This document shows positions 36,541 to 64,000 of a DNA stretch of 64,000 bases, in pieces. Under the pieces are notes generated by a model. The model saw nothing but the letters and a program-made list of their open reading frames with translations, made no database searches and was not told the DNA's origin. How positions within the stretch are numbered: position 1 is the first letter of the stretch; every line of letters starts with the position of its first letter. Origin of the DNA: Rhynchopus sp. YZ270_cl-10 (taxonomy: Eukaryota). The DNA lies in NCBI GenBank assembly GCA_964035575.1, contig OZ037835.1, forward strand, positions 1,426,001-1,490,000. Direction: 5' to 3'. Made by a program: the position numbers and the translations under genes.

Positions 36541-37467
36541 ATATACTATACTACGGTATCCTTTTTGTACGAGTATGCAATATGTCTGGAAATTAAAGAC
36601 GCTTTCGTTCTTCGGTTGCCATGAGTCTTACCGTTTTCCCCTCCCCCCCTTTTGTGCTCCACCTCTCCCCCGTACTTCATGATGCGATCAACAAGCAACG
36701 AACAATGAACAAATAATGAAGGGCGGGTATTGCATTTTTGTTTTATTTTTGGGGTGGTGAGTTTTCTCCGTTGCTGAACAGTGTCTGTACACTCCCCAAC
36801 GCATACCTGTGTCGGGAAGCGAGTGGGACAGTAGGGGTGTAGGAGAACTTATTGTGAAGCCTTCACAGCGAGACTTCCCGATGAGGGTAGGAAAGTCCTG
36901 GATTATTCTATTCCAACAAGGAAGGGAACCATGCTGCAGGCGTGCCTGCCCCTTTCCTCCTCTCGGGCGGCGGTAGAACAGGGTTGTTTTGATCACTGTG
37001 CGTATTGCGTTTTTGGGGAGTGCTTGGTTCGCTCAATCGGTTCGGATGGACAGGGCCAGTAGGGTTTTTGTACCCTTTAGAGAAGACGCATGGATGTGTG
37101 CTCGGTCCTCCCCCGCAGAAGCGTGCGGCGGGTACCATGTTCACAGGTTTTCTCGCTTTTCCCACTATTCCCCTTTCCCCCCCTTATACTGCATAGTATG
37201 CTGATATTACGCATCGGTCCCTTTGGGCCATGCTGCGGTCAGCGGAAAAGGACAGTGGTAGATTAGTGAAGACAAACTAAGTGGCAAAATGGTGGTATAG
37301 TTTTTTCTGCAAACCCCAAAAGACTGAAACCCCATGTCCTGAACTATGGTTGAGCTGGGCCATGTGGGGGAAGCGGAAATAGATACCACGACGAGTCTCA
37401 TGCACCCTGCTACGTGTCCTCCCACCATATCACCACACACCACCACACAGCCCCACCCCTCCCCTTG

Positions 37468-46433: not shown

Positions 46434-46957
46434 TCGCATCACTTTCATTAGCTTTTTGCTGCAAACCCCAGAAGACTTGAAAGCCCGCGCAACCGTATGC
46501 ACTGGACAATGTTGTAAATGGGCTATTCCTGGGCGAAAGGCGAAAGGGACACTGCGGCTGACGAAGGTGTAGGGACCGTGTTCTCCATTGCAGTGACTGC
46601 TTCTTCCTTTATGTTGACCTCCGTGTTCCTCATCACACACGGCCTCGGCTTCCTCCCGGTAGTTGTTGTGAAGAAACAAAGAGACGTGAAAGTTGTATTT
46701 TTGAGAGTGTACCAACGTTATTGAACGGTCAAACAGTAGACTGCCCCTAAACAAAAAAATTAGACCACATTTTACCACACCGACTCAAAAGATGAAATCT
46801 GTTTCTGGGACTCAGGAGGAATTTTTGAGCTCTGGACATGGGGGTAACACTCCGCTTTGGGGCACCTAACATGAGGTCAGAAAGACAATGAGGAAGGGGT
46901 GGGTTTTTGAATTTGTATCAGTCCTATTCGTGGTCCTTTACCCCCCCCCCCCCCTTA

Positions 46958-48143
46958 GGGGGTACGACTCCAGCCATTTTTTGCGCACGGAAAATTCATT
47001 TGGCATTATCTGGTCATCTCCAAGGCAACTGCGGGTGAAAAACACCCTCAGAGTGGGTCACAGGGGGCCTGTGGGTCGAAAAACGACCCAGAAGCCACCC
47101 CAGAATACAAAAAAATGGAAAAAAAATAGTGAAAAAACGGCTTTTTTCACGTTTTGGCCACTTTGGGCAAAATAGCGATTTTTCGAGAAAAATCAAAAAC
47201 CGGGATATTTTTTGACATCACAAAGCCTCCTTTGGCACAAATATACCCCAAAAGTGGCCTGTGAGTCCATTCCAACCTGTTTTGGACATATTTGACACTT
47301 TTGGAAGTGTTTTTTTGGTGTTTTTAGGTCAAAAAAATGCCCAAGACGTCCCCAAGACATCCCCAAGACACTTTGCACACCCCCTGTTACGGTCATATTT
47401 TTTTCGTTTTTTTGCCTGAAACCCCCAAAATACCCCTCCCGGACCCCACATAGTCCCGAATATCCATCACACACCCACTCAGAGTGAGTAGAAGCACCCC
47501 AAAAAAAATATTTTTTAAAGCCCTTCAACTTCAACATGGATGCTGCCGAAACTGAAGCACAATTTTAGGGCTTTAAAAAATATTTTTTTTGGGGTGCTTC
47601 TACTCACTCTGAGTGGGTGTGTGATGGATATTCGGGACTATGTGGGGTCCGGGAGGGGTATTTTGGGGGTTTCAGGCAAAAAAACGAAAAAAATATGACC
47701 GTAACAGGGGGTGTGCAAAGTGTCTTGGGGATGTCTTGGGGACGTCTTGGGCATTTTTTTTGACCTAAAAACACCAAAAAAACACTTCCAAAAGTGTCAA
47801 ATATGTCCAAAACAGGTTGGAATGGACTCACAGGCCACTTTTGGGGTATATTTGTGCCAAAGGAGGCTTTGTGATGTCAAAAAATATCCCGGTTTTTGAT
47901 TTTTCTCGAAAAATCGCTATTTTGCCCAAAGTGGCCAAAACGTGAAAAAAGCCGTTTTTTCACTATTTTTTTCCATTTTTTTGTATTCTGGGGTGGCTTC
48001 TGGGTCGTTTTTCGACCCACAGGCCCCCTGTGACCCACTCTGAGAGTGTTTTTCACCCGCAGTTGCCTTGGAGATGGCCAGATAATGCCAAATGAATTTT
48101 CCGTGCGTTTGGTCCCAGCCAAAATGGCTGGAGTCGTATCCCC
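46958..48143. mobile_element. Foldback element (~1.19 kb near-perfect palindrome) with TA TSD
   Basis: Termini ggggRtacgactccagccatttt, arms ~565 bp, centre ~47525-47567. An empty paralogous site is present at ~48937-49000. Confidence 0.9.
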
Positions 48144-48337
48144 TACCCCCCCCCCCCCCCTTCCTTTACCCCCCCCCCCCCTTATTTTACCCCCTTTTTC
48201 AGAAAAAAACGGTTCAGGCCAAAATAACATGGTCCTTTACCCCCCCCCCTTATAGTACCCTGTTGTGGCTGGTACTTTACCCCCCTGGGGGGGTAAAGTA
48301 CCAGCCACCAGGCAATTTTTGGGTAATTATCACCGCG

Positions 48338-48430: not shown

Positions 48431-50595
48431 AATTATGGGGTGATAGTTTCACATAATGCCGCGCGTACCTGTTTTGTTTAATGGTTTGCTGGTAGGGGCT
48501 GATGTGTTCAGCGGGTCGTACATCCGGAGACTGTAGGACTGGTCTGATTTGAAGCTGGAGACAAGCTCGAAATGAGGAAAGGGTAAAGTGCAAATAATCC
48601 TTCACCCCTGTTTTTCATCGGGTGTGCAGGTAGATGGGTGCAGGTGGGTACGTTTGTGCCGCGTGGGCGATACGTTTGGGACACCTCACGGAATCTGAGG
48701 CAACATCGTCATCCCTGACCAGTCATGGTACAGGCACAGGCAGAAAGATGATGTGGATGATGTGGATTTCCAGGATTCATGACCACTTGCGAGGTCGCAA
48801 GGAGGTGAGAATTTTTTTCAGACGATACATTTATCATTAGATCATGTGTCGTCACACTGTGTTGCACAAAATTTCACCCCACGGTGTATGAAAAAGTACC
48901 CCCTTCCCACCCAAAAACATGACCAAACCCATAACATGGTCCTTTACCCCCCCCCCTTACCCCCTCCTTTACCCCCCCCCCCCTTATTTTACCCCCCTTT
49001 TTCCAAAATTTCCGGTTCACCGACCCAAAGGGGGGGGGGGGGGTAGGGGGTCGCATTGTCCTCACAAAAAGTGAAATAAAAATTTTTTGCAACATAGAAA
49101 CTCGTTTCCCGTGGAAAACTAGACACATACCCACCCCAAAAATGTTCGGAGGATCCAAAGAAACCATTTTTTTACACTTTGGTGGGCTCAGAAATACCAA
49201 AAATGGGGAAAATTAGTGAAAAATGGACTTTTACCCCAAAATGGGGAAAAATGGTTTTTTAGCAAAAAAATTGATTTTTTTGGATCACCAGAGGTCTATT
49301 TTGGTGACTCTCTGGTGCAAATCGGGTCCCAGGGGTCCTGTGGACCTGATTTCAACGACCAACAGGCTTCTGTACCACTTGCAAATGATTTTTTTTGAGT
49401 TTTTGAGTCAAAAAAAGTGCCTCTGACCCCCTTGTCACCCCCTTGTCCAGTCCAGGACTTTTCCCCTGGCCATCACATAAAGTAGGGTATGATGCAAATT
49501 TGGGTTCATACCCCCCCCAAAAATGGTCTGCGGACCCAACGGAACCGGTTTTTGACCCTTTGGAGGACTTAGAAGCACTAGAAATGGGGAAAAGGAGTGA
49601 AAAATTGCCCTCCCCCCCAGATGGGGGGGCAGGGGCGGTTTTGGGCTAAAAAATACCAAATTAGGGCCGCCAGAGTCCTCTTGGGGCCACTCTCCAGTGG
49701 AAATCGTACTCCTGGGGGTCCTGTGGGCCTGATTTCGACGGGCTGCACCCTTTTGGGCCCTAGAACCGATCTTGGTTTGAAATATTGAGTCGAATATGAC
49801 CCCCTGAACCCGTGCGTATGCGTGTAAAGCACCCCCCTCACCCCTCCCCCCTCACTGCCCACCTTCTCCTCCCCTGACAGGCGTAACAAATAAAAAAACG
49901 GCCTCCCACTCACAAAAAGCGTCTGAGGATGCTGCTGAGTTCGTGAGGAGGTTCGCGGATGCAGAGTGGATCAGGGGTGTGTGCATGCGTGTCCTGATGA
50001 AGTGCTTCAGCTGCGCATCGAAATGCACGACTGTGGGGGGAAGGCAGAAAATGCCAAATTAAGGCCGCCAGAGGCCTCTTGGGGTCACTCTCCGGTGTAA
50101 ATCGTACTCCTGGGGGTCCTGTGGGCCTGATTACGACGGGCTGCACCCTTTTGGACCCTGCGAACCGATCTTGGTTTGAATTATTTAGTTAAATATGTCA
50201 AATTCCTCCAATCATGGGCTGTATACAGTACAAAATCATGAAAACACCAATAAAAAGGCATTTTTTTTCGTTTTTTCACGTCTTTTGCCGCAAAACCCCT
50301 CAAGAACCCCCGGAAACCCATTTTTGGGGTGGCGCAGGGTGTGGGTCACCACTGAAATGGCCCACCGGCGAAAAAATAATAATGAACAAGATAAAACAAA
50401 AAAGCTTGCGTTTCTTTTATCGAACAGATTTTATTCTCCGCCCCGTACCCAAAACGTAAACACCACTTTGAATCAGAAAAAATATTTTCTTTTCTTTTTT
50501 CTTCCACACGCGCTTGGTTTTTGTGTTTCATTAACTTTTATCAAAAAGCTTTACCGTTCTTTTCCCTCTTTTTCTTCTCTTCTTTCTCTCTCATT

Positions 50596-51987
50596 ATGCC
50601 TGCCACGGACACCCGCACGAAGGCGCAGCTCCTTGCGGCTCTGCGAGACATGAAGAGGCAGGCGGAGGATCAGAGGGCGGACCTGGAGGAGCGCGAGGCG
50701 CGGATGGAGAAGAAGCTGGATCGGGCAATGTCATCTTTGGCGGCGCGAGACCCGCCCGCCGACCACCAACAATATTGTTACGACCTCCAGGATGAAGGAA
50801 TGGAGGGTCGCGGGGGGTGGGATCAGAGCGGGTACGAGGCGTGGGACTATGGGGATGATAATGAAGGGGACCCCGTTGATGACGTGCCGGGTAACGGTGC
50901 AGATGTTGACGACGACGACGACCTGACGGAGGAACCGAATACGCAGACGACAAAGCCACCTGTGGTGAAGCCGGCGACGAAGGCTGCGACGCGTGCTGCG
51001 AAACCGTCTCCGCGTGCGTCCCCCGAAAGCCCTGCGACGTTGTCCGAGATGGTGGAGGCCGTGACGGCGGCCGTGCTGGCGCGTCTTCCTCCGCAGCTCC
51101 CCGCGCAGGGCAAGACGCCTGATGTCCCGCCGACGCCGAAGCTGGCTGGGAAGAGACGCAGAGACCCGCCGTGTGACATTTTCCCATTGCTGACAACGGC
51201 GGCTGCGGACGCCTTGTACGTGGCGTACACGGAGGAGCACGGGGACTTTTTCTTTGACCGCATGCCTGAAGAGGTGTCTCGTTTGCTCGCCAACTGCGAC
51301 AAGCAAGCCGAAGCCATGACGGTCTTATCGGATTACGCGCCGCTCTCCGCACCGAAGGGCCCTGTGACGCAGTCTTCTGCCGACGACGACCAGGAGGAGG
51401 AAGGTGCAGACATTCGGTGCTACACTGAAGTGTCCAGGTGGCCTGAGACGTTTGACGAGTCCTGGTTTGCGGAGTTTGAGCGGGTACTCCGTGCTAGGAC
51501 GGACATGTACGCGTTTCTGGGCAACCACGGGCTTCAGGAGAAACGCGACAGGACTTTTCTGACCATCCGAAACTTTTGGATCTTCCGGAACCAGAACCCC
51601 GCAGCGCTGACCGAATGGCTCCGCCGCATGAGGGGGCACATGGCTGAACTGGAGGCCCTCCGTGCCACCTACACCACGAGGTCCCCGGGGGCGGCCGAAC
51701 ACATGCGCAGGCAGCTCGAGTCGAATAATCTTCCTCGCGCCCTGCGTGACGCCCGCAGGAGGTTCGAGGTGGATTTTCGGCCTACGGGAAAGTCGAATGG
51801 GGCCACGCACAACACCACGCACTTTCCCAGAAAATCGACAGGCAGAGCGACCCCGCGGCCGGCCCAGACCCCGAAGCCCACACCGAAGACTGCCCCGAAG
51901 AAGCCGGAGGGGAAGGCCTGCCACCGGTTCCTGAAGGGGCTTGCGTGCCTCAAGCATCCTTGCCCGTTCGAACACCAGAAGCAGTGA
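50596..51987 (+). CDS. gag: Gag-like protein with N-terminal coiled coil and C-terminal CCCH zinc finger
   Basis: First ORF after repeat A1; ends in CHRFLKGLACLKHPCPFEH. Confidence 0.8.
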   Translation: MPATDTRTKAQLLAALRDMKRQAEDQRADLEEREARMEKKLDRAMSSLAARDPPADHQQYCYDLQDEGMEGRGGWDQSGYEAWDYGDDNEGDPVDDVPGNGADVDDDDDLTEEPNTQTTKPPVVKPATKAATRAAKPSPRASPESPATLSEMVEAVTAAVLARLPPQLPAQGKTPDVPPTPKLAGKRRRDPPCDIFPLLTTAAADALYVAYTEEHGDFFFDRMPEEVSRLLANCDKQAEAMTVLSDYAPLSAPKGPVTQSSADDDQEEEGADIRCYTEVSRWPETFDESWFAEFERVLRARTDMYAFLGNHGLQEKRDRTFLTIRNFWIFRNQNPAALTEWLRRMRGHMAELEALRATYTTRSPGAAEHMRRQLESNNLPRALRDARRRFEVDFRPTGKSNGATHNTTHFPRKSTGRATPRPAQTPKPTPKTAPKKPEGKACHRFLKGLACLKHPCPFEHQKQ

Positions 51988-52953
51988 CCACGATGGGAGG
52001 ACTCGGTGGCGGGGCTGGAGGCGCGAGCGACGTGTGCCGCGACGAAGGCGCAGACGCGCAGCATCGTGCGGAAGTACGAAATGTACACGCGCGCCTGCGG
52101 ACTCGGGCAGATGCCGCACCCTTTGCGCCTACGGGCGTTCGCCGCCGCAATGTTGTCGGATCGGATGAGCGCGGAGGAGAAGGAGAGGCTGCTGGTGCGA
52201 GCGCCGGGGCAACGTGGGCGACCCTTCTCCCTGGCGATGACGACGTCGGCGCTGGAGCGGTACGTGAACGTGCTGGCTCGGGTGCTGGAAGTGCCGGACA
52301 GTGTGCTGAGGGAGACCCGCAAGGGGCTGGTGCGCACTCGCCTGGAACGACGGGAAACCCCCACTCACGCGCCACCCCTGCCCTACACCTGCATGCAGCA
52401 GACTTGGAAGCGTCTCTGGCGAGAGGGAAACAGTGTTCTGTGTGCGGCCGTGGCGTTGGCGTGGACGGGTGCGCTGCGCATGGCAGACCTGCGTGCTATA
52501 CTCCCATCAGACGTCGTGCTCCCAGAAGCAGGCAGGGTGGGCACGGGCACCATTGCGATAAGGTGGTGGACGGTGAAGGAGGCCAGGCTACGAGGGGACC
52601 CAGCCGAGCTGCTATACACCCTCCCCGAGCATATGTTCCCTGCCATCCGCCGGTGGAAGCTACGCGGGATGGCGTTCAGTGTGTCAGACATCCGCAACCT
52701 GGGACGGGAGACCTCTCTGCACTTCCCCGAATATCGCGACCACTCCTGGAAGAGAGGGGCCTTGCAGCACTTGGCGATGATGGGGGCCACGTGGGGGGAT
52801 ATGCTGGTGGTGGCACGCCACAAGGAGGTCGACACGCTCCGCCGATACCTCTGGGGGTGCATCACTCCCGACTTCCTGTCCCTGGAGCGCACATCGGCGA
52901 TGCTGCACCGCCCGATACCCCAGAGCTGGAGAGCGTCGGGGCGCTCCGACTGA
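51988..52953 (+). CDS. Tyrosine recombinase (integrase) of the retroelement
   Basis: Motifs GALRMADL (R), TVKE (K), HSWKRGA (H..R), ARHK (H) and LRRYL (Y). The frame is open directly after the gag TGA. Confidence 0.9.
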   Translation, partial: PRWEDSVAGLEARATCAATKAQTRSIVRKYEMYTRACGLGQMPHPLRLRAFAAAMLSDRMSAEEKERLLVRAPGQRGRPFSLAMTTSALERYVNVLARVLEVPDSVLRETRKGLVRTRLERRETPTHAPPLPYTCMQQTWKRLWREGNSVLCAAVALAWTGALRMADLRAILPSDVVLPEAGRVGTGTIAIRWWTVKEARLRGDPAELLYTLPEHMFPAIRRWKLRGMAFSVSDIRNLGRETSLHFPEYRDHSWKRGALQHLAMMGATWGDMLVVARHKEVDTLRRYLWGCITPDFLSLERTSAMLHRPIPQSWRASGRSD

Positions 52954-54719
52954 CGGAACGGAACCGTGTGTCCGACTGGTGTCCGGAGTATGCGCGATCA
53001 TTGGAGACGTCCCACCCTCTGCTTGAGTGGGACTACGACATTGTGGCAGTGGTGGCGACACATGTGCGTGTGCTGGCGCAGGAGATCGATGCGGCGTGGC
53101 AGGGCTGCGACCTGTCGGAGGACAGTGAGACTTGTTTTGTGGAAGATCCGGAAGGCCACCTCCTGCACCTGAGCTCGGGCTCCGATGTGGCTGACTCGCT
53201 CCGCAGGCACGAGCGCATGATTGGGGAATGTGCGGCCTCGGTGTATGCGGTTGGTGTGGCCCGTGGTCCGTCGAAGGGTTGCGATGCGGCATTGGATGTG
53301 CTCCCGGACAGCCGCCTGAACCTATCTGTAGTGGAGGAAGGGCTGAACGAGTGGGAACGTACGCTCCTGAGGGACTATGTGAACGAGCCCATGCTGCATA
53401 CGACCACCCGCAAACAGTGCCAGACCTCCTCCTCGCTCACCTGTGCGGACCTCGCCAGCTTGGTGAAGAAGGGCATCCTGCGCGTAGCTGTGGGCAGGCC
53501 GCACATCACCCTCCCCACCTTCAAGATTGGCAAGAAGAACGGCCTGGCGCGCCTTCTGGTCGATGGGAGGGAGTTTGACAAGAGGTCAAAGCCAGTGCTC
53601 CCTCCGCTCACCCCACAACTCTCCGACCTCGAGCGTTTCGTGCTCCAGCACAACTTCTTCTGCTGTGTCGACTTTCTGGGATATTTTTTCCAGATCCCTG
53701 TCGGCCCCGATCTGCAGACCAAGCTGGGGATCAGGACCACAGAAGGGTATTTCTGCTTCCGGGTGGCGGTCCCGGGGATCAGCAGGGCTCCCTCTGTCGC
53801 GCAGCTGGCCACACTGGGGATGCTACAGCGAGCTAACCTCCGTTCAGTGTCCCTTGCGATATATGACGATGTCTGCATTGCAGGTCAGACACTGGCGGAG
53901 GTGGAGCAGCGACGACAGGCTTTCGATGCGACGTTGCGTGACGCGAACTGCGTGGTGAGGGAGGAGAAGCGGGTGGACCCCACACACTGCGCGGTGTTCA
54001 TTGGTGTCCAGCTGGACATGTCGGCGAAGACGTTGGCGCTGGACGAGGACTGGAGGAGTAAGCTGCTGGCGTCGCCTACGCCCCGGACTCTCACCTGCAG
54101 AGCGGTGGCCCACCACATTGGGTGCTACAGATGGGCGCACTTGGTCATGCGCACGCCGATCGCTGGGTTCACCCTGATGTGCCGCCTCTCTCGGCAGCTA
54201 AGCCGCCACTGCACTACGGCGAAAGAGTGGGACAGGTCGGTTACCTTGACGGGCTCCTTGCTAGCGGAGTTTCGCCGTGCTGAGAAGTGGCTGGCGGCGT
54301 GTCGTCCCCGGCGTGTTCTGGCAGATGCGCCTGCGTGGCACATATGGTCTGATGCCAGCGACGTGGGTGCGTCTGTTGTCTTGCTGGACCCTGTGGCACG
54401 GAAGGTGAAGGCACGTGTGGACTGGACGTGGGATGCTCTCCTGCTGACGTGCCGCCCACCCACGCCTATTCGCAGGAGGGAGCTGGTGACCGCCCTCATC
54501 GCCATGGCTGTGGCTGACTCTGTTGCCCCGCGAGGGTATGGATTGGATTGTTTTCATGACAATTCCACTGCGGAGTCACGCCACCGCAAAGGTTCGTCGC
54601 CCCACCCTCAGGAGGACCAGCTGATGGCAAGACTGATGTCAGGCATAAGTCTTCGGAGAAGGTTCACCACGCACCTGGTCGGGACGAAGCTGATGGTGGC
54701 GGACCTGGACACGCGATGA
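51993..54719 (+). CDS. pol: Reverse transcriptase-RNase H (DIRS-order), overlapping the YR ORF in the -1 frame
   Basis: RT motifs VDFLGYFFQI, PGISRAPSVAQ, IYDDVCI, FIG. RNase H motifs WSDAS, RELVTA, HDNSTA, ADLDTR. The true start is uncertain. Confidence 0.9.
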   Translation: MGGLGGGAGGASDVCRDEGADAQHRAEVRNVHARLRTRADAAPFAPTGVRRRNVVGSDERGGEGEAAGASAGATWATLLPGDDDVGAGAVRERAGSGAGSAGQCAEGDPQGAGAHSPGTTGNPHSRATPALHLHAADLEASLARGKQCSVCGRGVGVDGCAAHGRPACYTPIRRRAPRSRQGGHGHHCDKVVDGEGGQATRGPSRAAIHPPRAYVPCHPPVEATRDGVQCVRHPQPGTGDLSALPRISRPLLEERGLAALGDDGGHVGGYAGGGTPQGGRHAPPIPLGVHHSRLPVPGAHIGDAAPPDTPELESVGALRLTERNRVSDWCPEYARSLETSHPLLEWDYDIVAVVATHVRVLAQEIDAAWQGCDLSEDSETCFVEDPEGHLLHLSSGSDVADSLRRHERMIGECAASVYAVGVARGPSKGCDAALDVLPDSRLNLSVVEEGLNEWERTLLRDYVNEPMLHTTTRKQCQTSSSLTCADLASLVKKGILRVAVGRPHITLPTFKIGKKNGLARLLVDGREFDKRSKPVLPPLTPQLSDLERFVLQHNFFCCVDFLGYFFQIPVGPDLQTKLGIRTTEGYFCFRVAVPGISRAPSVAQLATLGMLQRANLRSVSLAIYDDVCIAGQTLAEVEQRRQAFDATLRDANCVVREEKRVDPTHCAVFIGVQLDMSAKTLALDEDWRSKLLASPTPRTLTCRAVAHHIGCYRWAHLVMRTPIAGFTLMCRLSRQLSRHCTTAKEWDRSVTLTGSLLAEFRRAEKWLAACRPRRVLADAPAWHIWSDASDVGASVVLLDPVARKVKARVDWTWDALLLTCRPPTPIRRRELVTALIAMAVADSVAPRGYGLDCFHDNSTAESRHRKGSSPHPQEDQLMARLMSGISLRRRFTTHLVGTKLMVADLDTR

Positions 54720-55511
54720 GCCGGTGCTTGCGTGTGAGTTTTTGATGTTGTGATGTCTGCGTTTTTATTGCTTTTACTTGTGTTTTTTGATTTTATTGAC
54801 GGCACTCTGTGGCAGGTGAGATAGCCCTGGCGGTCTCTCATCTCTCGGGTGTTTTTTCTTGTTGTTGTTGTTGTTTTCTTCTTTTTGCGTCTGTCGCGCG
54901 TATCGTCCATCCCTTGCCTATGCTGGTGTCCCGCCTGTGGTCACTGGGGCTACGGAGATGGGTGAAAATGAGGGGGGGGTAGTTGTTTATGTCCCTAGTT
55001 TCGACGCGAAACGTTTCCCCATGTATTGCACGGGAAACAATATATATGACAAACAGGTGCAGGGTGGTTCCGTGCTTATCATAGAACCCGGCACCTTGTG
55101 TGTCTTCCAAAAACCAAAAAGCGTTGTGTGTGAAGTTTTGAAGGAAGGAAAAATAAAATGAACAAGATAAAACAAAAAAGCTTGCGTTTCTTTTATCGAA
55201 CAGATTTTATTCTCCGCCCCGTACCCAAAACGTAAACACCACTTTGAATCAGAAAAAATATTTTCTTTTCTTTTTTCTTCCACACGCGCTTGGTTTTTGT
55301 GTTTCATTAACTTTTATCAAAAAGCTTTCCCTCCCTCCACTCCCTGCTTTTTCTTCATAAAGTTGTGCCTTATTGGCTTGATTGCTTGTTTAGCTCTTTC
55401 TCTGTGCTGCTCGCGCATTGTCTGTTTTCCCTTGCGTGCATGTTTTACATGGTGTTTCTCTCTGTTGCTACTGGCACACTGTTTTGTTTCTTCCTGTTGC
55501 ACGAAAGCGGA

Positions 55512-56997
55512 TGAGCTAATACTGGGTAACCCTGCTTGAGCTGAGTTCTTGATGATCCCGGGTGATTCCAGGGTTAGAGTTCTTGTGGCTTCTCGCATGG
55601 GTTGGTTCTGCTTGCGTAGAGATCTTGTTGATCCCGGGTGATAAAGAGACGGAGTGCCGTAGGGGCTCGTCTTTCCAGGGCTAGAGTTCTCGATGCCACT
55701 TGTAGGCTTGTTGATCCCGGGTGATAGGAGACTGAGCTCCATATGGGCTTGTCTCTCCAGGGGTAGAGCTCTGTGGTCGCCTGCATTACTGTGTATTTAT
55801 GCTCGGATGTTTTTTGTGTCTATTCGCGTATCTCTTTTCTTTCCTGGTACATGTATTCGGACGAGTGTATACTGGGTAACCCTGCCTGAGCAGAGTTCTT
55901 GAGGATCCCGGGTGATTCCAGGGGTAGAGTTCTTGTGGCTTCTCGCATGGGTTGGTTCTGCTTGCGTAGAGATCTTGTTGATCCCGGGTGATAAAGAGAC
56001 TGAGTGCCGTATGGGCTCGTCTTTCCAGGGCTAGAGTTCTCGATGCCACTTGTAGGCTTGTTGATCCCGGGTGATAGGAGACTGAGCTCCATATGGGCTT
56101 GTCTCTCCAGGGGTAGAGCTCTGTGGTCGCCTGCATTACTGTGTATTTATGCTCGGATGTTTCTTGTGTCCATTTGCTCTGTCTTACTTTCCTGTTACAT
56201 GAATGCGGATGAGTGTATACTGGGTAACCCTGCTTGAGCAGAGTTCTTGAGGATCCCGGGTGATTCCAGGGGTAGAGTTCTTGTGGCTTCTCGCATGGGT
56301 TGGTTCTGCTTGCGTAGAGATCTTGTTGATCCCGGGTGATAAAGAGACGGAGTGCCGTATGGGCTCGTCTTTCCAGGGCTAGAGTTCTCGATGCCACTTG
56401 TAGGCTTGTTGATCCCGGGTGATAGGAGACTGAGCTCCATATGGGCTTGTCTCTCCAGGGGTAGAGCTCTGTGGTCGCCTGCATTACTGTGTATTTACGC
56501 TCGGATGTGTTTTGTGTCTACTTGCTTATCTCTTTTCTTTCCTGTTACATGAATGCGGATGAGTGTATACTGGGTAACCCTGCTTGAGCAGAGTTCTTGA
56601 GGATCCCGGGTGATTCCAGGGGTAGAGTTCTTGTGGCTTCTCGCATGGGTTGGTTCTGCTTGCGTAGAGATCTTGTTGATCCCGGGTGATAAAGAGACGG
56701 AGTGCCGTATGGGCTCGTCTTTCCAGGGCTAGAGTTCTCGATGCCACTTGTAGGCTTGTTGATCCCGGGTGATAGGAGACTGAGCTCCATATGGGCTTGT
56801 CTCTCCAGGGGTAGAGCTCTGTGGTCGCCTGCATTACTGTGTATTTACGCTCGGATGTTTTTTGTGTCTATTTGCTCTGTCCTACTTTCCTGTTACATGC
56901 ATGCGGATGAGTGTATACTGGGTATCCCTGCTTGAGCTGAGTTCTTGATGATCCCGGGTGATTCCAGGGTTAGAGTTCTTGTGGCTTCTCGCATGGG
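55512..56997. repeat. Tandem array of 350/348-bp units (4 full + 1 partial) between repeats A2 and B2
   Basis: The anchor actgggta occurs at 55521, 55871, 56219, 56569 and 56917. Each unit contains three gatcccgggtgat ... ccagggNtagagYtct modules. Confidence 0.95.
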
Positions 56998-57678
56998 TAT
57001 CTCTTCTGCTGCCTGTAGACACATGATTTTGTACCTGTAGTGCTTGACGTAAGATTTAATGTTGATCTGGCCCGTCCTGGGAAGTGATCTTGTGGTCGGC
57101 ACTGAATGCGGTCATGTGTCTTTGTCTTACGATATTTTTGCCACCTCGATGTGGTGTTTCTTATGACGTTTCTCTGATACCTCCCTTGGGAGCATGAATA
57201 CATGCCTCTTTTAGCTCTGTCAGTACACAGCCAACCGGCGTGCTGCTCTTCTTACGTTTCTCTTGTCTTTGGTCATATATCAGTAGTTTATGCAAACGTC
57301 TCAAATTTAAAAACCCCTGTTACCTGTGTTGTCATTGTTTCCCTAGTTTCGACGCGAAACGTTTCCCCATGTATTGCACGGGAAACAATATATATGACAA
57401 ACAGGTGCAGGGTGGTTCCGTGCTTATCATAGAACCCGGCACCTTGTGTGTCTTCCAAAAACCAAAAAGCGTTGTGTGTGAAGTTTTGAAGGAAGGAAAA
57501 ATAAAAAAATTACATAAAAACGTTAGCCAATGCGACCCTCTAGGGGGGGGGGGGGGGGGGGTACACGACGGACTAGTTATGACCATGACAGGTGATTTTA
57601 CTAGTAAAATGACAGGTGAAAATTTTTGACAGGTGGTACCTGTCATTTTGACAGGTACCACCTGTCAAAATACAGGCA

Positions 57679-57878
57679 CCAGGTACCCAGGTGCCCAGGT
57701 ACCCAGGTACCCAGGTACCCAGGTACCCAGGTACCCAGGTACCCAGGTACCCAGGTACCCAGGTACCCAGGTACCCAGGTACCCAGGTACCCAGGTACCC
57801 AGGTACCCAGGTACCCAGGTACCCAGGTACCCAGGTACCCAGGTACCCAGGTACCCAGGTACCCAGGTACCCAGGTAC
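57679..57878. repeat. Octamer microsatellite (CCAGGTAC)x25
   Basis: Direct reading; one variant unit (ccaggtgc). Confidence 0.95.
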
Positions 57879-59518
57879 CCCCAATGACATAACGAAGTAT
57901 CGCTTGAAAGTACCGTTCAATAACCTTTCTTGGGTGTGCATGAAGTAGCACACAAGGTATATCAAACGGTAAATCAATCAGATAAACGTTACATCATCGG
58001 AAAATTGTTGGCACCGCCCCCCTGTCTTCGTATTTATTACGTCGACAGGCCAAACAGCGTTGGGCTCAGAAGAAGCAGTGCAAAACACTGGGGATCAACA
58101 TGAGAACCAACTCCCAACAACACAGGCTACCAAAGTAGCAGGTGGGGTGTTGCGGGTGTTTGGGGTGAAAGAAAATCGATTTTGGTAAGTTCCAGCAGAA
58201 AATTCTTAAGTTTGCACTAGTCGAGAGAGGCTTACCCGCTGCAGTGAAGCAGTGCACCCATTTAAGGATGGAGAAGCGTGACACGCACATACAAGTATGT
58301 ACGTTACTTCAACAAAGGCTGAATTCTGGTAATTCTAAGGGATGTGAATTCAGCCACCACGCAGGTAGTGTTTTAAGGTTCCTCGCTTTGTTCTGCACAG
58401 CGGCCTTATGATACAAAGGAGTTGCCCCCGCTCTCTTTCGCGCAAACTTAAGAAAATTCTGAAGTAACTACAACCTGGCGTGCGGGTACAGATGCATTGC
58501 TTTGTTCTTTCCTCAAAGTCATGTGTGATCTCTCGGGTCTGTACTAAAGTCAGTGTTTAGATAAGCATCCACTTGACTCGTTCTAACAACCGTTGAAATC
58601 TAGAACAAAACAACACACTGCCCCTTCTCACACCAAGCCGCCATGCTTCAAGAGCATGCCCTGGGCAAAAATTACTGTGACAAAAACTGGTTTCTGGGGG
58701 AACGCAATATTTTCTTGTGTCTAGTCCTCCGCAAGCAGAGGACAGACTTTCCGGATCCCGAAGTCGAATTTCTTGCACTAGCTATGCTCCCTGGGTTAAT
58801 GGCTATAGCAGTGACTGACAAGAGTTTCCCACCCCCAGATGAAGAAAGAACCGACGCAGAGTTGTGGCTTCTTCATAGTTTTTTCTGCATTTTATAAGTT
58901 CATCCTGTGAGGGAGGGTGTTTTTGGAGGTGTGATGGGAAGAGGAAAAGAAAAAGCAAGAAGAAGAGATATTACTTTTTTGGTGTCGCTACTAGTAAATG
59001 ACAGGTGTAAAGTATGACAGGTGGAAACCTGCCATGTCACAGGAAATGCTGTGTGTGTGTGTGTAACAAAATGAACGACCTCACCGACCCGCATAAAATA
59101 AAACTTATAAGAACAAAACCCAAGAAACAAACAAAAAAAAAAAAAAAAAGAGAGAAAACAAACAAGAGCAAACACTCTCAAAAGAAATGCTCGAGACTCG
59201 TTCCTCTTTGCTTGTTGCTCAAAAGACTATTAACGGGGGGGGGGGGGGAAAGTAAAGATTGTTTGTTGTTCGCTTCCACACCACTTCTGCACTCAGATTC
59301 AAGTCTTTTGGCTGTCCTTACAAGCGCCTGCCAAAACGCTCGCCTCGTGGGTGTGGACTTTTTTCTTTTTCTTTTTCCCTTTTTTTTCTTCGACTTGATT
59401 TACGGTATGGTTGTGTTTGACTGAAGTACAGAAAGTGTCGTGGAGCACAGGGAAGAAAAGAGAGAGAGGGAAAACCGGGGAGCGGGAGAGGGGAAAACCC
59501 GCAAACCTTAGATTTAAA

Positions 59519-61345
59519 TTAACTATGAGCAGATTTCATGTGCGAGTCTCTTGCTCTAGCATTTGAGAAACGTGTTGCGCACAACGGGCAGGTTTTTTTA
59601 TCCAAATTCTCAGCGTGCGCATGCAACAGGTGTTGGCTTAGCCCCGCAGTTTCCCTCAAACAAAACGGGCACTTCATGATAGGTGCACGATGTTTGCCAT
59701 CGTAATGGGCAAATAATCCAACTGAAGATTCGAATCCGGTGTTGCAGATAATGCAAGTATGGTCACCATTTTCATCATCTTTTTTTTTATCCTCGCACAC
59801 ATTTTCGACATTTTCGTCATCACTGTTGACTCCAGGCTCCTCATTGCACACACAAATGAGTAAAGTTTCCCCAGCTTTATCTTTTTTATCCCATACGTAT
59901 TTTTGCCCCTCCGCCCCTTTGTTGCAAGTATGCCGCTTCATACCCAGGTTTTTGACACGAGTTCTCAAACTAGTGAAGGCGTCTGTCCAGACAGCGTCTT
60001 TCTCGGTGATGCAGGTATGAAAATGAAAAGTGTTATAGTTATATAATACAGGCAATTTTTTTCTGTCGACTGGGCCAAGTTCAGGCAGGTCGCGTTTGCA
60101 ATTTTGCTCAACCAAATGCTTCTTGCTCAGTTCAAATGCCAGCAAGTCACGTTCCATGGTCTGGACAGATGTACACACAGTCCATCTCTTGCGTTCCCCA
60201 TTGCACTGTTCGAAAGCCTCATCTGAGAGACATATCCGATGTGCATCCTCCACGTCAAACCAGTGCTCAAGGCTATGAGCGTATGACGACCTGGTGACGC
60301 CTGCTTTGAAAAATTCAAGCAAAAATATGAGGGTATGGTATGAGAGGAGGGCGTAAAGGAAGTCCTTCTCGTAGGGGTTATCTGTGCCTTCGTGGTAGTG
60401 ATACCTGACAGGTATGTCTTGGTACCGGAAAAAAATGAGCACCTGCATACAGCTGCACATTATTTCCCGCATGCCAACCGTTTCACGTTCAAGCATGGTG
60501 AGGAGGGTACGTGATTGAGACCCCGTCATGTTCCCATCAGAAGAACCAGTGACTGTTTCTTGTGTGCTTCCTGCGTTGGGGATGGTCTTTATCATCAGGT
60601 TCACCATGCCTTTGCAATCGTGCAACGCAGGGGTTAAGGCATAGCACGGATGCTCAAATCGGTGCGAAATGTAACTGGTGAAGCCGAGCTCATCCATGCG
60701 CTGCAGGCTACACCTCTCACACCGATGAAGCTTCTTCAGTCTGTCATCGATATCAATGGGGCAGAAAGCAGTTCGATGTTTTCCTCCTAAACCCTTACAC
60801 AGTCTCAGCAACTCTGCATGATCACCTCCAAACCTGAAATGAAGGATAGGGATGCGCAACTTCTTAACGTAGCACCCACGCGACTGTATGGACTTCAAAG
60901 CAACGAGGCCGCAGAACAACCACCACTCGTAAAAGTCGCTTTTGGTTTTGTCCGCGACAGTCAGGAATCTACTCGCCTGAAGCCCACTGGCTAATCCCAC
61001 GGCAGCACGTTGACGACCACTTGCACTTCTGAATGCACTTCGAGGCGTGTATGCGTCAGCAGATAATACGAGGATAGCTGGTGGGGAGTTCACGGTGAAG
61101 GGGAACTTTGCAGTCAGAAAGCACACAGCCTTCTCGATGTTACCAATTAAGCTCGTTGCCTTCTCCTTAAACGGCTCCTCGCGTATCCTCAGCGTCTCTC
61201 TGGATAGACCTACCCTCAAGGATGTGTGCTTGCGGATGAGTGAGCCAATTCGTGACACTGTGGTCATTGATAGGCCCAATTCGAAGCGATATCTGGCGAT
61301 GATATCCGCAATTTTCAGGGCTGTGCCAAGGTGAAGTTCACTCAT
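59519..61345 (-). CDS. RAG1/Transib/Chapaev-like DDE transposase with three C-terminal C2H2 zinc fingers
   Basis: Ordered motifs LSAD(97), GGD(175)HAELLRLCKGL..FCP, ALHDCKG, MTGSQSRTL, YAHSLEH and SDEAFE(379)QCN parallel the RAG1-core motifs. Fingers: CIIC..H..H, CPFC..H..H, CPLC..H..H. Confidence 0.8.
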   Translation of the reverse strand: MSELHLGTALKIADIIARYRFELGLSMTTVSRIGSLIRKHTSLRVGLSRETLRIREEPFKEKATSLIGNIEKAVCFLTAKFPFTVNSPPAILVLSADAYTPRSAFRSASGRQRAAVGLASGLQASRFLTVADKTKSDFYEWWLFCGLVALKSIQSRGCYVKKLRIPILHFRFGGDHAELLRLCKGLGGKHRTAFCPIDIDDRLKKLHRCERCSLQRMDELGFTSYISHRFEHPCYALTPALHDCKGMVNLMIKTIPNAGSTQETVTGSSDGNMTGSQSRTLLTMLERETVGMREIMCSCMQVLIFFRYQDIPVRYHYHEGTDNPYEKDFLYALLSYHTLIFLLEFFKAGVTRSSYAHSLEHWFDVEDAHRICLSDEAFEQCNGERKRWTVCTSVQTMERDLLAFELSKKHLVEQNCKRDLPELGPVDRKKLPVLYNYNTFHFHTCITEKDAVWTDAFTSLRTRVKNLGMKRHTCNKGAEGQKYVWDKKDKAGETLLICVCNEEPGVNSDDENVENVCEDKKKDDENGDHTCIICNTGFESSVGLFAHYDGKHRAPIMKCPFCLRETAGLSQHLLHAHAENLDKKTCPLCATRFSNARARDSHMKSAHS

Positions 61346-61437
61346 AGTGTGTTTGCAGTTGTGATGTTTCTCTGTGTGATGAATTTATGTCGAGGGAGGG
61401 GTGACCCACTAAACTTCATCACAGCTGCAATCACACT

Positions 61438-62010
61438 ATGAGTGAACTTCATCACGGCACAGCCCATATCATCGCCAGATATCGCTTCGAATTGGCTCAC
61501 TCATCCGCAAGCACACATCCTTGAGGGTAGGTCTATCCAGAGAGACGCTGAGGATACGCGAGGAGCCGTTTAAGGAGAAGGCAACGAGCTTAATTGGTAA
61601 CATCGAGAAGGCTGTGTGCTTTCTGACTGCAAAGTTCCCCTTCACCGTGAACTCCCCACCAGCTATCCTCGTATTATCTGCTGACGCATACACGCCTCGA
61701 AGTGCATTCAGAAGTGCAAGTGGTCGTCAACGTGCTGAGGGTTAGATTCCTGACTGTCGCGGACAAAACCAAAAGCGACTTTTACGAGTGGTGGTTGTTC
61801 TGCGGCCTCGTTGCTTTGAAGTCCATACAGTCGCGTGGGTGCTACGTTAAGAAGTTGCGCATCCCTATCCTTCATTTCAGGTTTGGAGGTGATCATGCAG
61901 AGTTGCTGAGACTGTGTAAGGGTTTAGGAGGAAAACATCGAACTGCTTTCTGCCCCATTGATATCGATGACAGACTTAACTTCATGATAAAGACCATTCC
62001 CAACGTAGGA
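61438..62010 (+). pseudogene. Inverted, internally deleted copy of the transposase 5' region
   Basis: Near-identical to the reverse complement of ~60570-61345, with several deletions and frameshifts. Confidence 0.9.
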
Positions 62011-62832
62011 AATTTTCGCGCGGAGCGCAAAAAAAAAAAAATTTTCTTTGGAGAAGGCTCGGTTTTCCATTATTGTTACAAAGTGTAGTGATTTAGGATC
62101 TTTTTTTTCAGGAAAATTCAAAGGATAAACCACTTTTCCGGTGACCCCCCTCCCCCTCCTATACCAAAAAAAGTTTTCCTCCCCGGATTTCGATCGGACC
62201 CCCCTCCCCCCCTTTTATTGTTATTTTGTAACAATAAATGGAAAAACGAGCCTTCCCTTGCCCTCGGTAACCCCGTAAGCCAAAACCCCGAAACCTGGAA
62301 AAAGGCCTGGAACGGATAAAAAGATTCAAAAATGACGAAGCAATACAATGAAGAGCCTAGAGTCAACAGTGATGACGACGAAAGTATGCGACGCTGAGAG
62401 CAAGAATAATAAAAAGAAGAGACTCTCGCATGAAATCTGACAAGTTTAATACAAACAGCGTGTAAAAAAAAAGAGGGGTGGGACTCTATTTTTTTTCTTG
62501 GGTGAACAATTGGAGGAAGAATTGCGAGGCAATAATATGCAACTTTTATAAAGTAACGCTACAAGTATGTCTGGTTTTTGTGCGCACCCCAATAATGAAG
62601 TGTAACAAAATAAATTTTTTTTTTGTAGTTTCGACAATCACCTGTCCGAGAACGGGTTCTGTACACAATGTTTTATATATATATTTTTTTTGTAGCTACC
62701 TGCAAAAAAAAAAAAGAAGATGAACCTGAGCCTCTCGGGCTTAACCACCTCGAAATAAAGTGTAAAATGGTGTAAAAAAAAAAAAAAAAGAAAAAAAAAA
62801 AGTTAAAAAGATGACCCTAAGCCCGTACTTAT

Positions 62833-63846
62833 TTAAGTACTTACTTCTGAGAAAGTTCCCGACTTGTCGTCACTCTCCTCGTCATCGTCATCGTCATGGT
62901 CAATGGTATGGTTACTAACCGCTTGAGAAACCATGACATCCTCACTGACTTCTCCAACTTCGCTGCCTTCATCTGCAGAGTCATGGCGGAGGTCATCTGG
63001 AACCTCAGACTCCCATGAGCCACCTCCAACATTTACCTTGGCGGTGGCCACTGCACTGGCGAGAGGAATGTAGACCATGGTATTTCCACCCTTCTCTATT
63101 ACGACTTCTTTACTGAAGTCAATCACGTACGTGTCGGGAACACGATACTTGAAATCGTAAACACCAGGTGTGAAGTTGGTGCTGGGCAATGTTCTTTTGA
63201 ACGACATGGTGAAGTCGCTGCCCGAGAGTTTTGCAGAGTCAGGGACGAGCTTCGTGCACCCGCTCTCCACCATGAGCCAGAGACACTTCACTCCATTGTG
63301 CGTAACCCCGCCTTTGTTTGTGCATTCTGGCCAGCTTCTCGTAATCTTTTTAGCTGGTGTCACTGAGGAGGTCTGTAGTTTGGCCTGGTACAACGTGAGA
63401 ACTTTCGCCTCATCGAGGTTGCATTTCTGTGCCAAGTTCTTCAGGCTCTTGTACTCCGCCGAATTGCTCTGTCCATTGGTGGGCGTTTGGCGCAGGGTGA
63501 AGCCGCAGAATTCGAGGTCGCTGTTCCCACTCGCTCGGCGGGAATAGTACGTCATGCTGCCGGCGTCTACTGCATTTTTGGCAGTCTTAATTTTGTGAAG
63601 TAAGTTCATCTCAATGCTAATTAAGCCGCTCTCTGATTTCAGATTTATCCCGAAAAGATTGTTCAACATCGCCTTCAACGGCGCATGAAGGAATGATTTG
63701 CCCTCTTTTTTCATCACATATATCTTGAGGAAGTTCTGCACCACATCCCTCACCTTAGATTCCACAGCCGGTTTGGGTTTGGGTTTGTCATCTACGACCT
63801 TCGATCTTTTGGTAGGCAGGGGCTGTGTCGCTGAGCGTTTTCCCAT
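62833..63846 (-). CDS. Hypothetical 337-aa protein (basic N-terminus, possible winged-helix and alpha-crystallin-like segments, acidic tail)
   Basis: Clean ATG-to-TAA ORF between A/T-rich flanks. Domain suggestions come from pattern only. Confidence 0.75.
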   Translation of the reverse strand: MGKRSATQPLPTKRSKVVDDKPKPKPAVESKVRDVVQNFLKIYVMKKEGKSFLHAPLKAMLNNLFGINLKSESGLISIEMNLLHKIKTAKNAVDAGSMTYYSRRASGNSDLEFCGFTLRQTPTNGQSNSAEYKSLKNLAQKCNLDEAKVLTLYQAKLQTSSVTPAKKITRSWPECTNKGGVTHNGVKCLWLMVESGCTKLVPDSAKLSGSDFTMSFKRTLPSTNFTPGVYDFKYRVPDTYVIDFSKEVVIEKGGNTMVYIPLASAVATAKVNVGGGSWESEVPDDLRHDSADEGSEVGEVSEDVMVSQAVSNHTIDHDDDDDEESDDKSGTFSEVST

Positions 63847-63850
63847 TTTT

Positions 63851-63996
63851 TATATTGTTTTTGTTGGTTAATTCCTGAATTGAGTGTCAGGGGGCGGGAG
63901 GGTAGCTTGAACCATGCACATTAATTAATAATTATAATGCAACCTCGTTCAACCACCCCCCTGACACCCAATTCAGGAACCAACAAAAGCAATATA
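63851..63996. promoter_or_regulatory. Imperfect palindrome immediately upstream of the 337-aa ORF (putative bidirectional promoter or foldback centre)
   Basis: tatattgtttttgttggttaattcctgaattgagtgtcaggggg ... ccccctgacacccaattcaggaaccaacaaaagcaatata around an AT-rich core. Confidence 0.5.
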
Positions 63997-64000
63997 AACT

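Follow-up and report, generated by a model that had tools for sequence, protein, structure and literature searches.

A probable Transib/RAG1-type transposase with an exchangeable zinc-binding tail in a likely two-gene element of a probable diplonemid protist

The 64,000-nt window analysed here (positions 1,426,001 to 1,490,000 of contig OZ037835.1, Rhynchopus sp. YZ270_cl-10) contains, at 59519..61345 on the minus strand, an open reading frame, ORF1, that encodes a predicted 608-amino-acid (aa) DDE transposase, P0001. In function, ORF1 is very likely a transposase of the CACTA-Mirage-Chapaev-Transib (CMCT) clade. We consider it probable that this predicted cut-and-paste enzyme has a Transib/RAG1-type core and likely serves a two-gene element that has moved recently in a probable diplonemid. 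The structure model makes it very likely that ORF1 works like a Transib/RAG1 core; that it is also nearer to Transib/RAG1 than to the other CMCT groups has a slightly better than even chance of being correct. An initial annotation of the window had described ORF1 as a RAG1/Transib-like transposase with a C-terminal array of C2H2 zinc fingers; a second gene, ORF2, and the inverted copies that accompany both genes were absent from that annotation.

The frame of ORF1 is open over all 608 aa, as first annotated. An in-frame stop codon is located upstream of its start, and close relatives in transcriptomes begin at the same position. The three residues proposed earlier as a candidate catalytic triad have no exceptions in alignment A4, which contains 18 long family members that are 21-46% identical to ORF1. 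D97, the predicted first catalytic Asp (61055..61057, minus strand), ends strand 1 of the structure model and is present in all 16 rows that cover this position; D175, the predicted second Asp (60821..60823, minus strand), which follows strand 4, and E379, the predicted Glu (60209..60211, minus strand), are present in 18 of 18 rows. H176, H242, D243, D375, C445, C498 and C500 are also invariant in A4. The second Asp and the Glu are separated by 204 residues in ORF1, by 196-213 in 17 rows and by 226 in the distant P0150, so that ORF1 fits the range of about 206-214 aa given for Transib transposases; the corresponding value for RAG1 is 253 (PMC1131882).

Between these two residues, H190, T192 and C195 together with H357 and H361 form the predicted split zinc site of the insertion domain (60263..60778, minus strand). 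C195, H357 and H361 are each present in 17 of 18 rows, and 17 rows retain the H(3)H pair. A cysteine occupies position 192 in five rows, in which the C-x-x-C is intact, 12 rows including ORF1 have S/T-x-x-C, and P0150 has neither cysteine. C(2)C and H(3-4)H motifs in this region are marks of the CMCT clade (PMC12730594); they are recognizable at the level of the family and degenerate in ORF1, in which T192 replaces the first Cys. For RAG1, the zinc ligands are C727, C730, H937 and H942 and the triad is D600, D708 and E962 (PMC4914335). The ORF1 motifs that had been paired with RAG1 motifs in the initial annotation do occur in the sequence, but the T-x-x-C (T192, C195) does not reproduce the two-cysteine half of the RAG1 site.

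An AlphaFold model of ORF1, generated from 13 sequences, has N-terminal helices, an RNase H-like sheet (residues 86-240) in which D97 and D175 occupy their customary positions, and a helical insertion predicted to bind zinc. The N-terminal helical region, residues ~1-85 (61091..61345, minus strand), is aligned in the model to the dimerisation/DNA-binding domain of RAG1 and of the Transib transposase HzTransib. With Foldseek, every row listed to rank 44 is a RAG protein or HzTransib (best E 1.5e-4, prob 0.99; HzTransib, E 6e-3), and the first unrelated row has E 0.07. An unbiased VIA search of 48,161 chains returned seven with Z of at least 5, of which five are RAG1 or RAG1-like (RAG1L), one is the P element transposase and one is unrelated; none reaches Z 8. 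The best of these was RAG1 4wwx (Z 5.8, root-mean-square deviation (rmsd) 8.6, 323 residues aligned), with HzTransib at Z 4.9; a second look gave Z 6.6 for RAG1 6xnx (rmsd 8.5, 330 aligned) and Z 6.0 for HzTransib 6pqx (rmsd 9.2, 306 aligned). RAG1 and HzTransib are therefore the best solved matches, as had been anticipated, although the matches are weak (E 1.5e-4; Z 6.6 and 6.0). Model residues 1-11 pair with RAG1 448-461 and with HzTransib 21-22, and residue 1 of ORF1 aligns at RAG1 448-454, so that the nonamer-binding domain (NBD) found in RAGL/ProtoRAG proteins is lacking. This absence is not special, as for HzTransib, too, the matched region starts only at residue 21. The offsets at the range ends, 579-583 relative to mouse RAG1, place E379 at 958-962 in a poorly modelled region, a mapping that is consistent with RAG1 E962 but short of a residue-level superposition.

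Word-index searches with ORF1 identified six clusters with 39-100% identity, of which those with names are proteins from the Rhynchopus euleeides transcriptome. A HMMER scan with alignment A2 found 33 proteins at E <=1e-30 and 425 at E <=0.001, the weaker matches mostly covering the fingers only. One member of A4 comes from Lacrimia lanifica, which, like R. euleeides, is a diplonemid, and with these named relatives the euglenozoan host that had been thought probable is likely. In ORF1, the core is followed by a Cys4 module, H/C443, C445, C498 and C500 (59846..60019, minus strand), that is likely zinc-binding; C445, C498 and C500 are present in 18 of 18 rows and C443 in 17, with His at this position in ORF1. 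The module is followed by three C2H2-type fingers, residues 530-607 (59525..59758, minus strand), within which Pfam recognizes zf-met (530-551), zf-Di19 (557-607) and jaz (586-605), with zf-met alone above its curated cut-off; on visual inspection, the spacing within finger 2 is shortened.

Within the family, the fingers constitute an exchangeable tail. Ten of the 18 rows of A4 have three fingers, four have one finger-like unit, one (P0041) has a CX2CX3AHX4C knuckle, two have none, although one of these (P0049) originates from a short contig and could be incomplete, and P0150 has a divergent tail. As judged from the alignment, the constant element, which precedes this variable tail, is the Cys4 module, residues 443-500. 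A tree of 18 core sequences, from all rows of A4 and the columns of residues 85-410, groups the tail types by subclade, with 7 of 15 inner branches open and P0150 and P0046 on long branches; it contains no known family and so gives no placement of the lineage. In invertebrate RAG1L proteins, a C-terminal CX2CX3GHX4C knuckle clamps DNA, a role in which it and the NBD are redundant (PMC10629977). This tail is absent from P0001, and its G-to-A version is present in one of the 18 rows (P0041). A fingerless 524-aa subfamily has copies that are 99.6-99.8% identical on several long contigs and, as this subfamily has also multiplied, the fingers are probably unneeded for spread. Of the earlier proposal that three fingers serve instead of an NBD, the lack of an N-terminal NBD and the concept of the tail as an added or swapped module for binding element ends survive. 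A required replacement is not what the family indicates: HzTransib also has only ~20 residues before the matched region, a zinc clamp is known in RAG1L, and the fingerless subfamily has spread. P0150 (EukProt, 713 aa, E 9e-7), a possible bridge to other lineages, retains the triad and Cys4 module, but the ligands of the split zinc site are lost and the protein is extended by an additional N-terminal region.

P0001 is encoded identically on six contigs, with one truncated and one frameshifted copy on two more, so that the search for genomic copies suggested in the initial annotation finds near-identical copies of ORF1 on about eight contigs. ORF2 (62833..63846, minus strand) is located upstream of ORF1 on the same strand, encodes a 337-aa protein with an acidic tail and, from the ORF list and contig records, co-occurs with ORF1. 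Seven contigs encode it identically and an eighth encodes a 99.7% variant; its relatives are all near-identical. There is no Pfam or PDB match to ORF2, no PHD-type Cys/His pattern is apparent by eye, and its AlphaFold model, with a predicted local distance difference test score (pLDDT) of 33, is uninformative; within the window, which ends at 64000, ORF2 shows no sign of being the RAG2-like kelch-PHD gene that is linked in RAGL/ProtoRAG elements. A prediction of an ORF1-ORF2 complex yielded no interpretable result (score 0.00). Contigs of the same sizes (840302 and 2160207 nt) are present in the ORF1, ORF2 and ORF2-mirror sets, and a contig of 969288 nt in the ORF1 and mirror sets, from which we infer that ORF1, ORF2 and the mirror copies form one unit at about eight loci. 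Three further subfamilies, 29-47% identical to P0001, have copies at least 99% identical, some of them broken, on Mb-scale contigs, and two of the three are on contigs with the same sizes as in the ORF1/ORF2 sets. Searches for loci with flanking sequence returned none from viral contigs or prokaryote genomes, and from metagenome contigs one 1026-nt fragment that is too short to include ends. A BFVD fold search gave no match at E <=0.001. No RNA data set was among those listed as containing the sequence, a result that bears neither way on expression.

By motif, a candidate left end is located at 57564..57667, where a CAC that follows a poly-G run and TA precedes six TGACAGGT motifs in both orientations. 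Two more are present at 58999-59022, and the window has 12 in total, compared with 3.6 expected, eight of them within these two clusters, which are candidate finger-binding sites. There is no match within 53046-59685 to the recombination signal sequence (RSS)-like CACRRTG, and two read-contig alignments, of the stretch right of 57900, reveal no terminus. The terminal inverted repeats (TIRs) as well as the target-site duplications (TSDs) of Transibs themselves vary in their traits (bioRxiv 10.64898/2026.08.26.747230). Such traits are 5′-CA..TG-3′ termini and a TSD of 2-5 bp for the CMCT clade, and an RSS-like TIR that begins CAC(A)ATG with a 5-bp TSD for Transib. The stretch at 58832..59116, downstream of ORF1, has an ORF1-like contig depth (956 versus 1038 in sequencing run X1, 565 versus 557 in run X3) and is probably within the unit, although contig depth is not a copy number and so extends the unit leftwards weakly.

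Both genes are accompanied by mirror copies. A head-to-head inverted copy of ORF1, non-coding and ridden with deletions, was identified by self-comparison at 61417..62439 on the plus strand, and the start codons of ORF1 and of this copy are separated by a partly palindromic spacer of 92 nt (61346..61437) that is spanned by contigs of runs X1, X2 and X4. Two blocks of the mirror copy match ORF1 exactly, one over 250 nt (61488-61737) and the other over 234-237 nt (61743-61979), and the RNA helices predicted across the pair are 248 and 234 bp. Short remnants with 74-94% identity, interrupted by many deletions, continue as far as the 3′-end of the gene; the reading frame of the copy closes after 28 codons. 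There is an 8-nt microhomology at one of the four junctions examined. An assembly artefact was considered as the source of the palindrome and is ruled out by independent contigs, from X1, X4 and X2, that cross the centre with no differing letters; these runs are from two studies, and the best-matching run may be the source sample, whereas X2 is from another study. An insert of ~200 nt (62053-62255) that resembles a miniature inverted-repeat transposable element, with inverted ends of 19-31 nt, is present within the ORF1 mirror copy. For ORF2, the start of an inverted, deleted copy is present at 63957..64000 (plus strand; inverted arms I7 and I18) and continues past the window. Its inverted arms are at 63849-63998, and an opposite-strand joint, 63767/64000, is found in X1, X2 and X4. 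Eight database proteins (P0031, P0033-P0039) are in-frame deleted versions of ORF2 and place the ORF2 mirror copy at eight loci. The tails of these proteins correspond to a single sequence read in three frames after a poly-C run that varies in length, so that the unit continues further to the right.

Several observations weigh against ORF1 being a Transib/RAG1-type enzyme of a mobile element. The model is mediocre, with a mean pLDDT of 61, a predicted template modelling score (pTM) of 0.52 and pLDDT <50 around E379; Foldseek TM-scores are 0.18-0.27, all structural matches have Z <8 with rmsd of 8-19 Å and ~10% identity, and the comparison of the triad with those of RAG1 and HzTransib is based on range ends and not on residue-by-residue superposition. 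The P element transposase is near behind (6pe2, Z 5.5, rmsd 8.2, 294 aligned), and the first zinc cysteine is substituted in ORF1. PDB searches with family profiles A2, A4 and A6 returned no RAG1 or Transib (for A4, among the best 60 of 159 matches), and for ORF1 and its family Pfam recognizes zinc fingers only, with no RAG1/Transib or other CMCT family. Similarly, a PDB sequence search with ORF1 found only finger proteins, at E >0.1, and no RAG1 or Transib, and the core-only family profile found one unrelated PDB sequence and no RAG1 or Transib. No TIR or TSD was found, the right end being beyond the window, and linkage of the genes at other loci is based on equal-sized contigs that are perhaps from more than one assembly.

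With respect to placement, though not function, there is a substantial probability, if somewhat short of even, that the family is a separate CMCT lineage, comparable to ESTA, Plavaka, Chapaev or Mirage and no nearer to Transib/RAG1, and that RAG1 heads the searches as the relative for which a structure is solved. Some motifs of ORF1 may resemble those of Chapaev as much as those of Transib. ESTA is a distinct CMCT lineage that also returns RAG1 in HHpred, and C(2)C and H(3-4)H are common to all CMCT groups (PMC12730594), so a RAG1 match at the top is by itself no proof of membership of Transib. There is no sequence link of the ORF1 family to RAG1/Transib, and the family has a H(3)H pair where RAG1 has H(4)H (H937/H942). 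With the relative P0004, the ESM Atlas lists Plavaka (0.89) and Transposase_21 (0.85) for the full-length protein, behind nameless C2H2-bearing proteins, and a DUF1280 cluster (0.92) for the core, residues 1-420; for this core, however, RAG1 clusters are placed above those families (0.94, 177 shared features). A closer affinity with Transib/RAG1 is also favoured by the spacing of the second Asp and the Glu, which is within the Transib range, by N-terminal helices that align in register with RAG1 and HzTransib, and by the one relative whose CX2CX3AHX4C tail has the spacing of the RAG1L CCGHC tail, though such knuckles are common. The RNase H-fold DDE assignment made at first annotation, with RAG1 and HzTransib as best solved relatives, thus stands, but that ORF1 is nearer to these than to other CMCT lineages is only slightly more likely than not. 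It is very improbable that ORF1 falls outside the CMCT clade, whether as a relative of the P element transposase or as another DDE transposase with a large insertion. The P element transposase does have Z 5.2-5.5 over residues 1-397, tied with HzTransib, but it is absent from the listed Foldseek rows and from the Atlas rows, and the ORF1 family carries C(2)C and H(3)H, motifs by which CMCT members are recognized.

It is unlikely that the unit is not self-mobile and is instead cargo of a larger repeat, a product of segmental duplications or a domesticated DNA-binding protein. The lack of detected ends or TSD would fit such an origin, as would the location of the locus among a nest of other repeats and the sequence that follows the poly-C run behind the ORF2 mirror copy, which is the same in all eight copies, so that the repeated unit is larger than seen. 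However, four divergent subfamilies with near-identical copies, some truncated or frameshifted, are the usual pattern of a young transposon, and the triad is invariant across rows that are 21-46% identical to P0001. For the mirror copies, the tentative and rather doubtful proposal from the analysis is that they silence the element via hairpin RNA. Diplonema papillatum has polycistronic transcription and a full RNA interference (RNAi) pathway (PMC10161547), which makes read-through hairpins plausible. An alternative explanation of this one step, which accounts for the mirror pattern at least as well as silencing does and that we regard as reasonably likely, is that a fold-back duplication left the mirror copies as inert scars without a regulatory role, parts of which gene conversion has kept identical. 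Long palindromes convert and delete on their own, the ORF1 mirror copy is non-coding and eroded, and one of its four junctions has the 8-nt microhomology. Less readily explained by inert scars are the same layout at both genes of the unit, the presence of two long blocks that are 100% identical next to remnants of 74-94%, and retention of the ORF2 mirror copy at eight loci. The most inclusive interpretation, a deep diplonemid branch of Transib/RAG1 that swaps its zinc tail on a fixed Cys4 base within a young, self-silencing two-gene element suited to polycistronic transcription, in which read-through RNA of each gene and its inverted copy would pair over several hundred base pairs, is improbable as a whole.

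By analogy with HzTransib and RAG, an ORF1 homodimer would bind both ends of the element, nick, generate a hairpin on the flanking DNA and join the freed ends into a target. The Cys4 module, aided in the ORF1 subfamily by the three fingers, may grip subterminal DNA as does the CCGHC tail of RAG1L, with the TGACAGGT clusters as candidate subterminal binding sites. In the most speculative step, which is more doubtful than not, read-through RNA over a gene and its mirror copy would form long duplexes, and the resulting RNAi would limit the element.

HzTransib (6PQX/6PQY/6PQN) has the same predicted fold over residues ~10-437, the DDE triad and a split zinc site, and likewise starts at the dimerisation helices (its residue 21). 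It differs in its ~10% identity and lack of a profile match, in the spacing of its first two catalytic residues (99, D125-D224 of its D125/D224/E435 triad, versus 78 in ORF1) and in that ORF1 has a substituted first zinc Cys, a Cys4 module, a C2H2 tail and a second gene. RAG1 and RAG1L (4WWX, 6XNX; BbRAGL, 6B40) are the best structural match to ORF1 and have the same domain order; RAG1L also has a zinc-binding C-terminal tail, but of CCGHC and not C2H2 type, one relative of ORF1 having a knuckle. ORF1 lacks the N-terminal region, RING and nonamer-binding domain of RAG1, and its insertion between the second Asp and the Glu is ~50 aa shorter. In AanRAGL of Aureococcus (PMC9435367), RAG2L is upstream on the same strand, as is ORF2 beside ORF1, but ORF2 gives no indication of an affinity with RAG2. 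EnSpm/CACTA, Mirage, Chapaev, Plavaka, ESTA and Lanisha share the C(2)C and H(3-4)H motifs, and RAG1 is the nearest solved relative, as published for ESTA (PMC12730594). They differ in that ORF1 and its family have no Pfam match to them and that they score lower in the Atlas than RAG1. The layout recalls maize Mu killer, a partial inverted duplication of a transposase gene for which a hairpin RNA generated by read-through has been proposed (PMC3440606). Mu killer is, however, a separate rearranged locus that silences other copies, whereas here each of the two genes has a mirror copy, which lies beside an intact gene and apparently moves together with the unit.

RAG1-like transposases are already known outside animals. 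RAGL has been reported from a stramenopile alga and Transib-like proteins from bacteria, fungi and plants (PMC9435367), so that the earlier description of such transposases as mostly from animals was overstated. Two-gene Transib-type elements are also known (PMC4411706), a broad screen for DDE transposases listed just 35 Transib transposases (bioRxiv 10.1101/2021.09.26.461848), and structural context is provided by PMC11844651. Searches of the literature outside Repbase, subscription journals and bioRxiv supplements found no report of a Transib/RAG1-like transposase from diplonemids or other Euglenozoa. The supplement text of PMC9435367, excluding a picture-only species figure, has no mention of diplonemids, euglenids, kinetoplastids or Discoba, and seven supplements of PMC10161547 have no mention of Transib, RAG1, Chapaev, CACTA or EnSpm. 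No report was found of the ORF1 lineage or of its layout, and what sets it apart is the lineage itself, a zinc tail that is exchanged within the family and the arrangement of two genes with a mirror copy each. ORF1 likely extends RAG1/Transib-type transposases to Euglenozoa and, as a compact, apparently young and probably single-subunit enzyme of 608 aa, offers a model for end recognition without an NBD. As tails vary naturally among members of a single family, the redundancy of NBD and tail proposed for RAG1L becomes directly testable and, if the mirror layout yields small interfering RNA, the transposon would have its own Mu-killer-like brake. The account of the origin of V(D)J recombination is unchanged, as neither a RAG2-like partner nor an RSS-like end has been shown and RAG1-like elements of protists are already published.

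The unit is located within a repeat-rich region. Based on contig depth, there are high-copy repeats at about 57949-58834, 59193-59462 and 62600-62810; the first two are dispersed and very high in copy number, with a summed contig depth that exceeds that of the gene by a factor of up to several hundred, and the second follows poly-A at several loci. Adjoining the left motif cluster, and with its CAGGT core, there is an 8-mer tandem array of 25 copies (57679-57880), and another 8-mer array of about 2.9 kb is present at 33701-36600. A tyrosine-recombinase retroelement occupies 50375-57506 and has a gag-like ORF (50596-51987), a reverse transcriptase ORF with a RVT_1 match, an ORF (52081-52953) that, from a motif seen by eye, we take to be recombinase-like, and a 350-nt tandem array. 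Its direct repeats are split, 54987-55158 being repeated at 57335-57506 and, by eye, about 50381-50550 again at 55157-55330. Short TA-flanked inverted ends in a poly-G tract, also seen by eye, delimit about 49045-57542, apparently another element that is split by the retroelement, and a near-perfect 1.2-kb palindrome, a fold-back element, is likewise apparent by eye at about 46950-48145 in a poly-C tract. Further upstream, 12891-46433 is a tandem array of intronless genes for receptor-like proteins. These have two kinase domains and differ in their extracellular parts; one copy is split and another is truncated.

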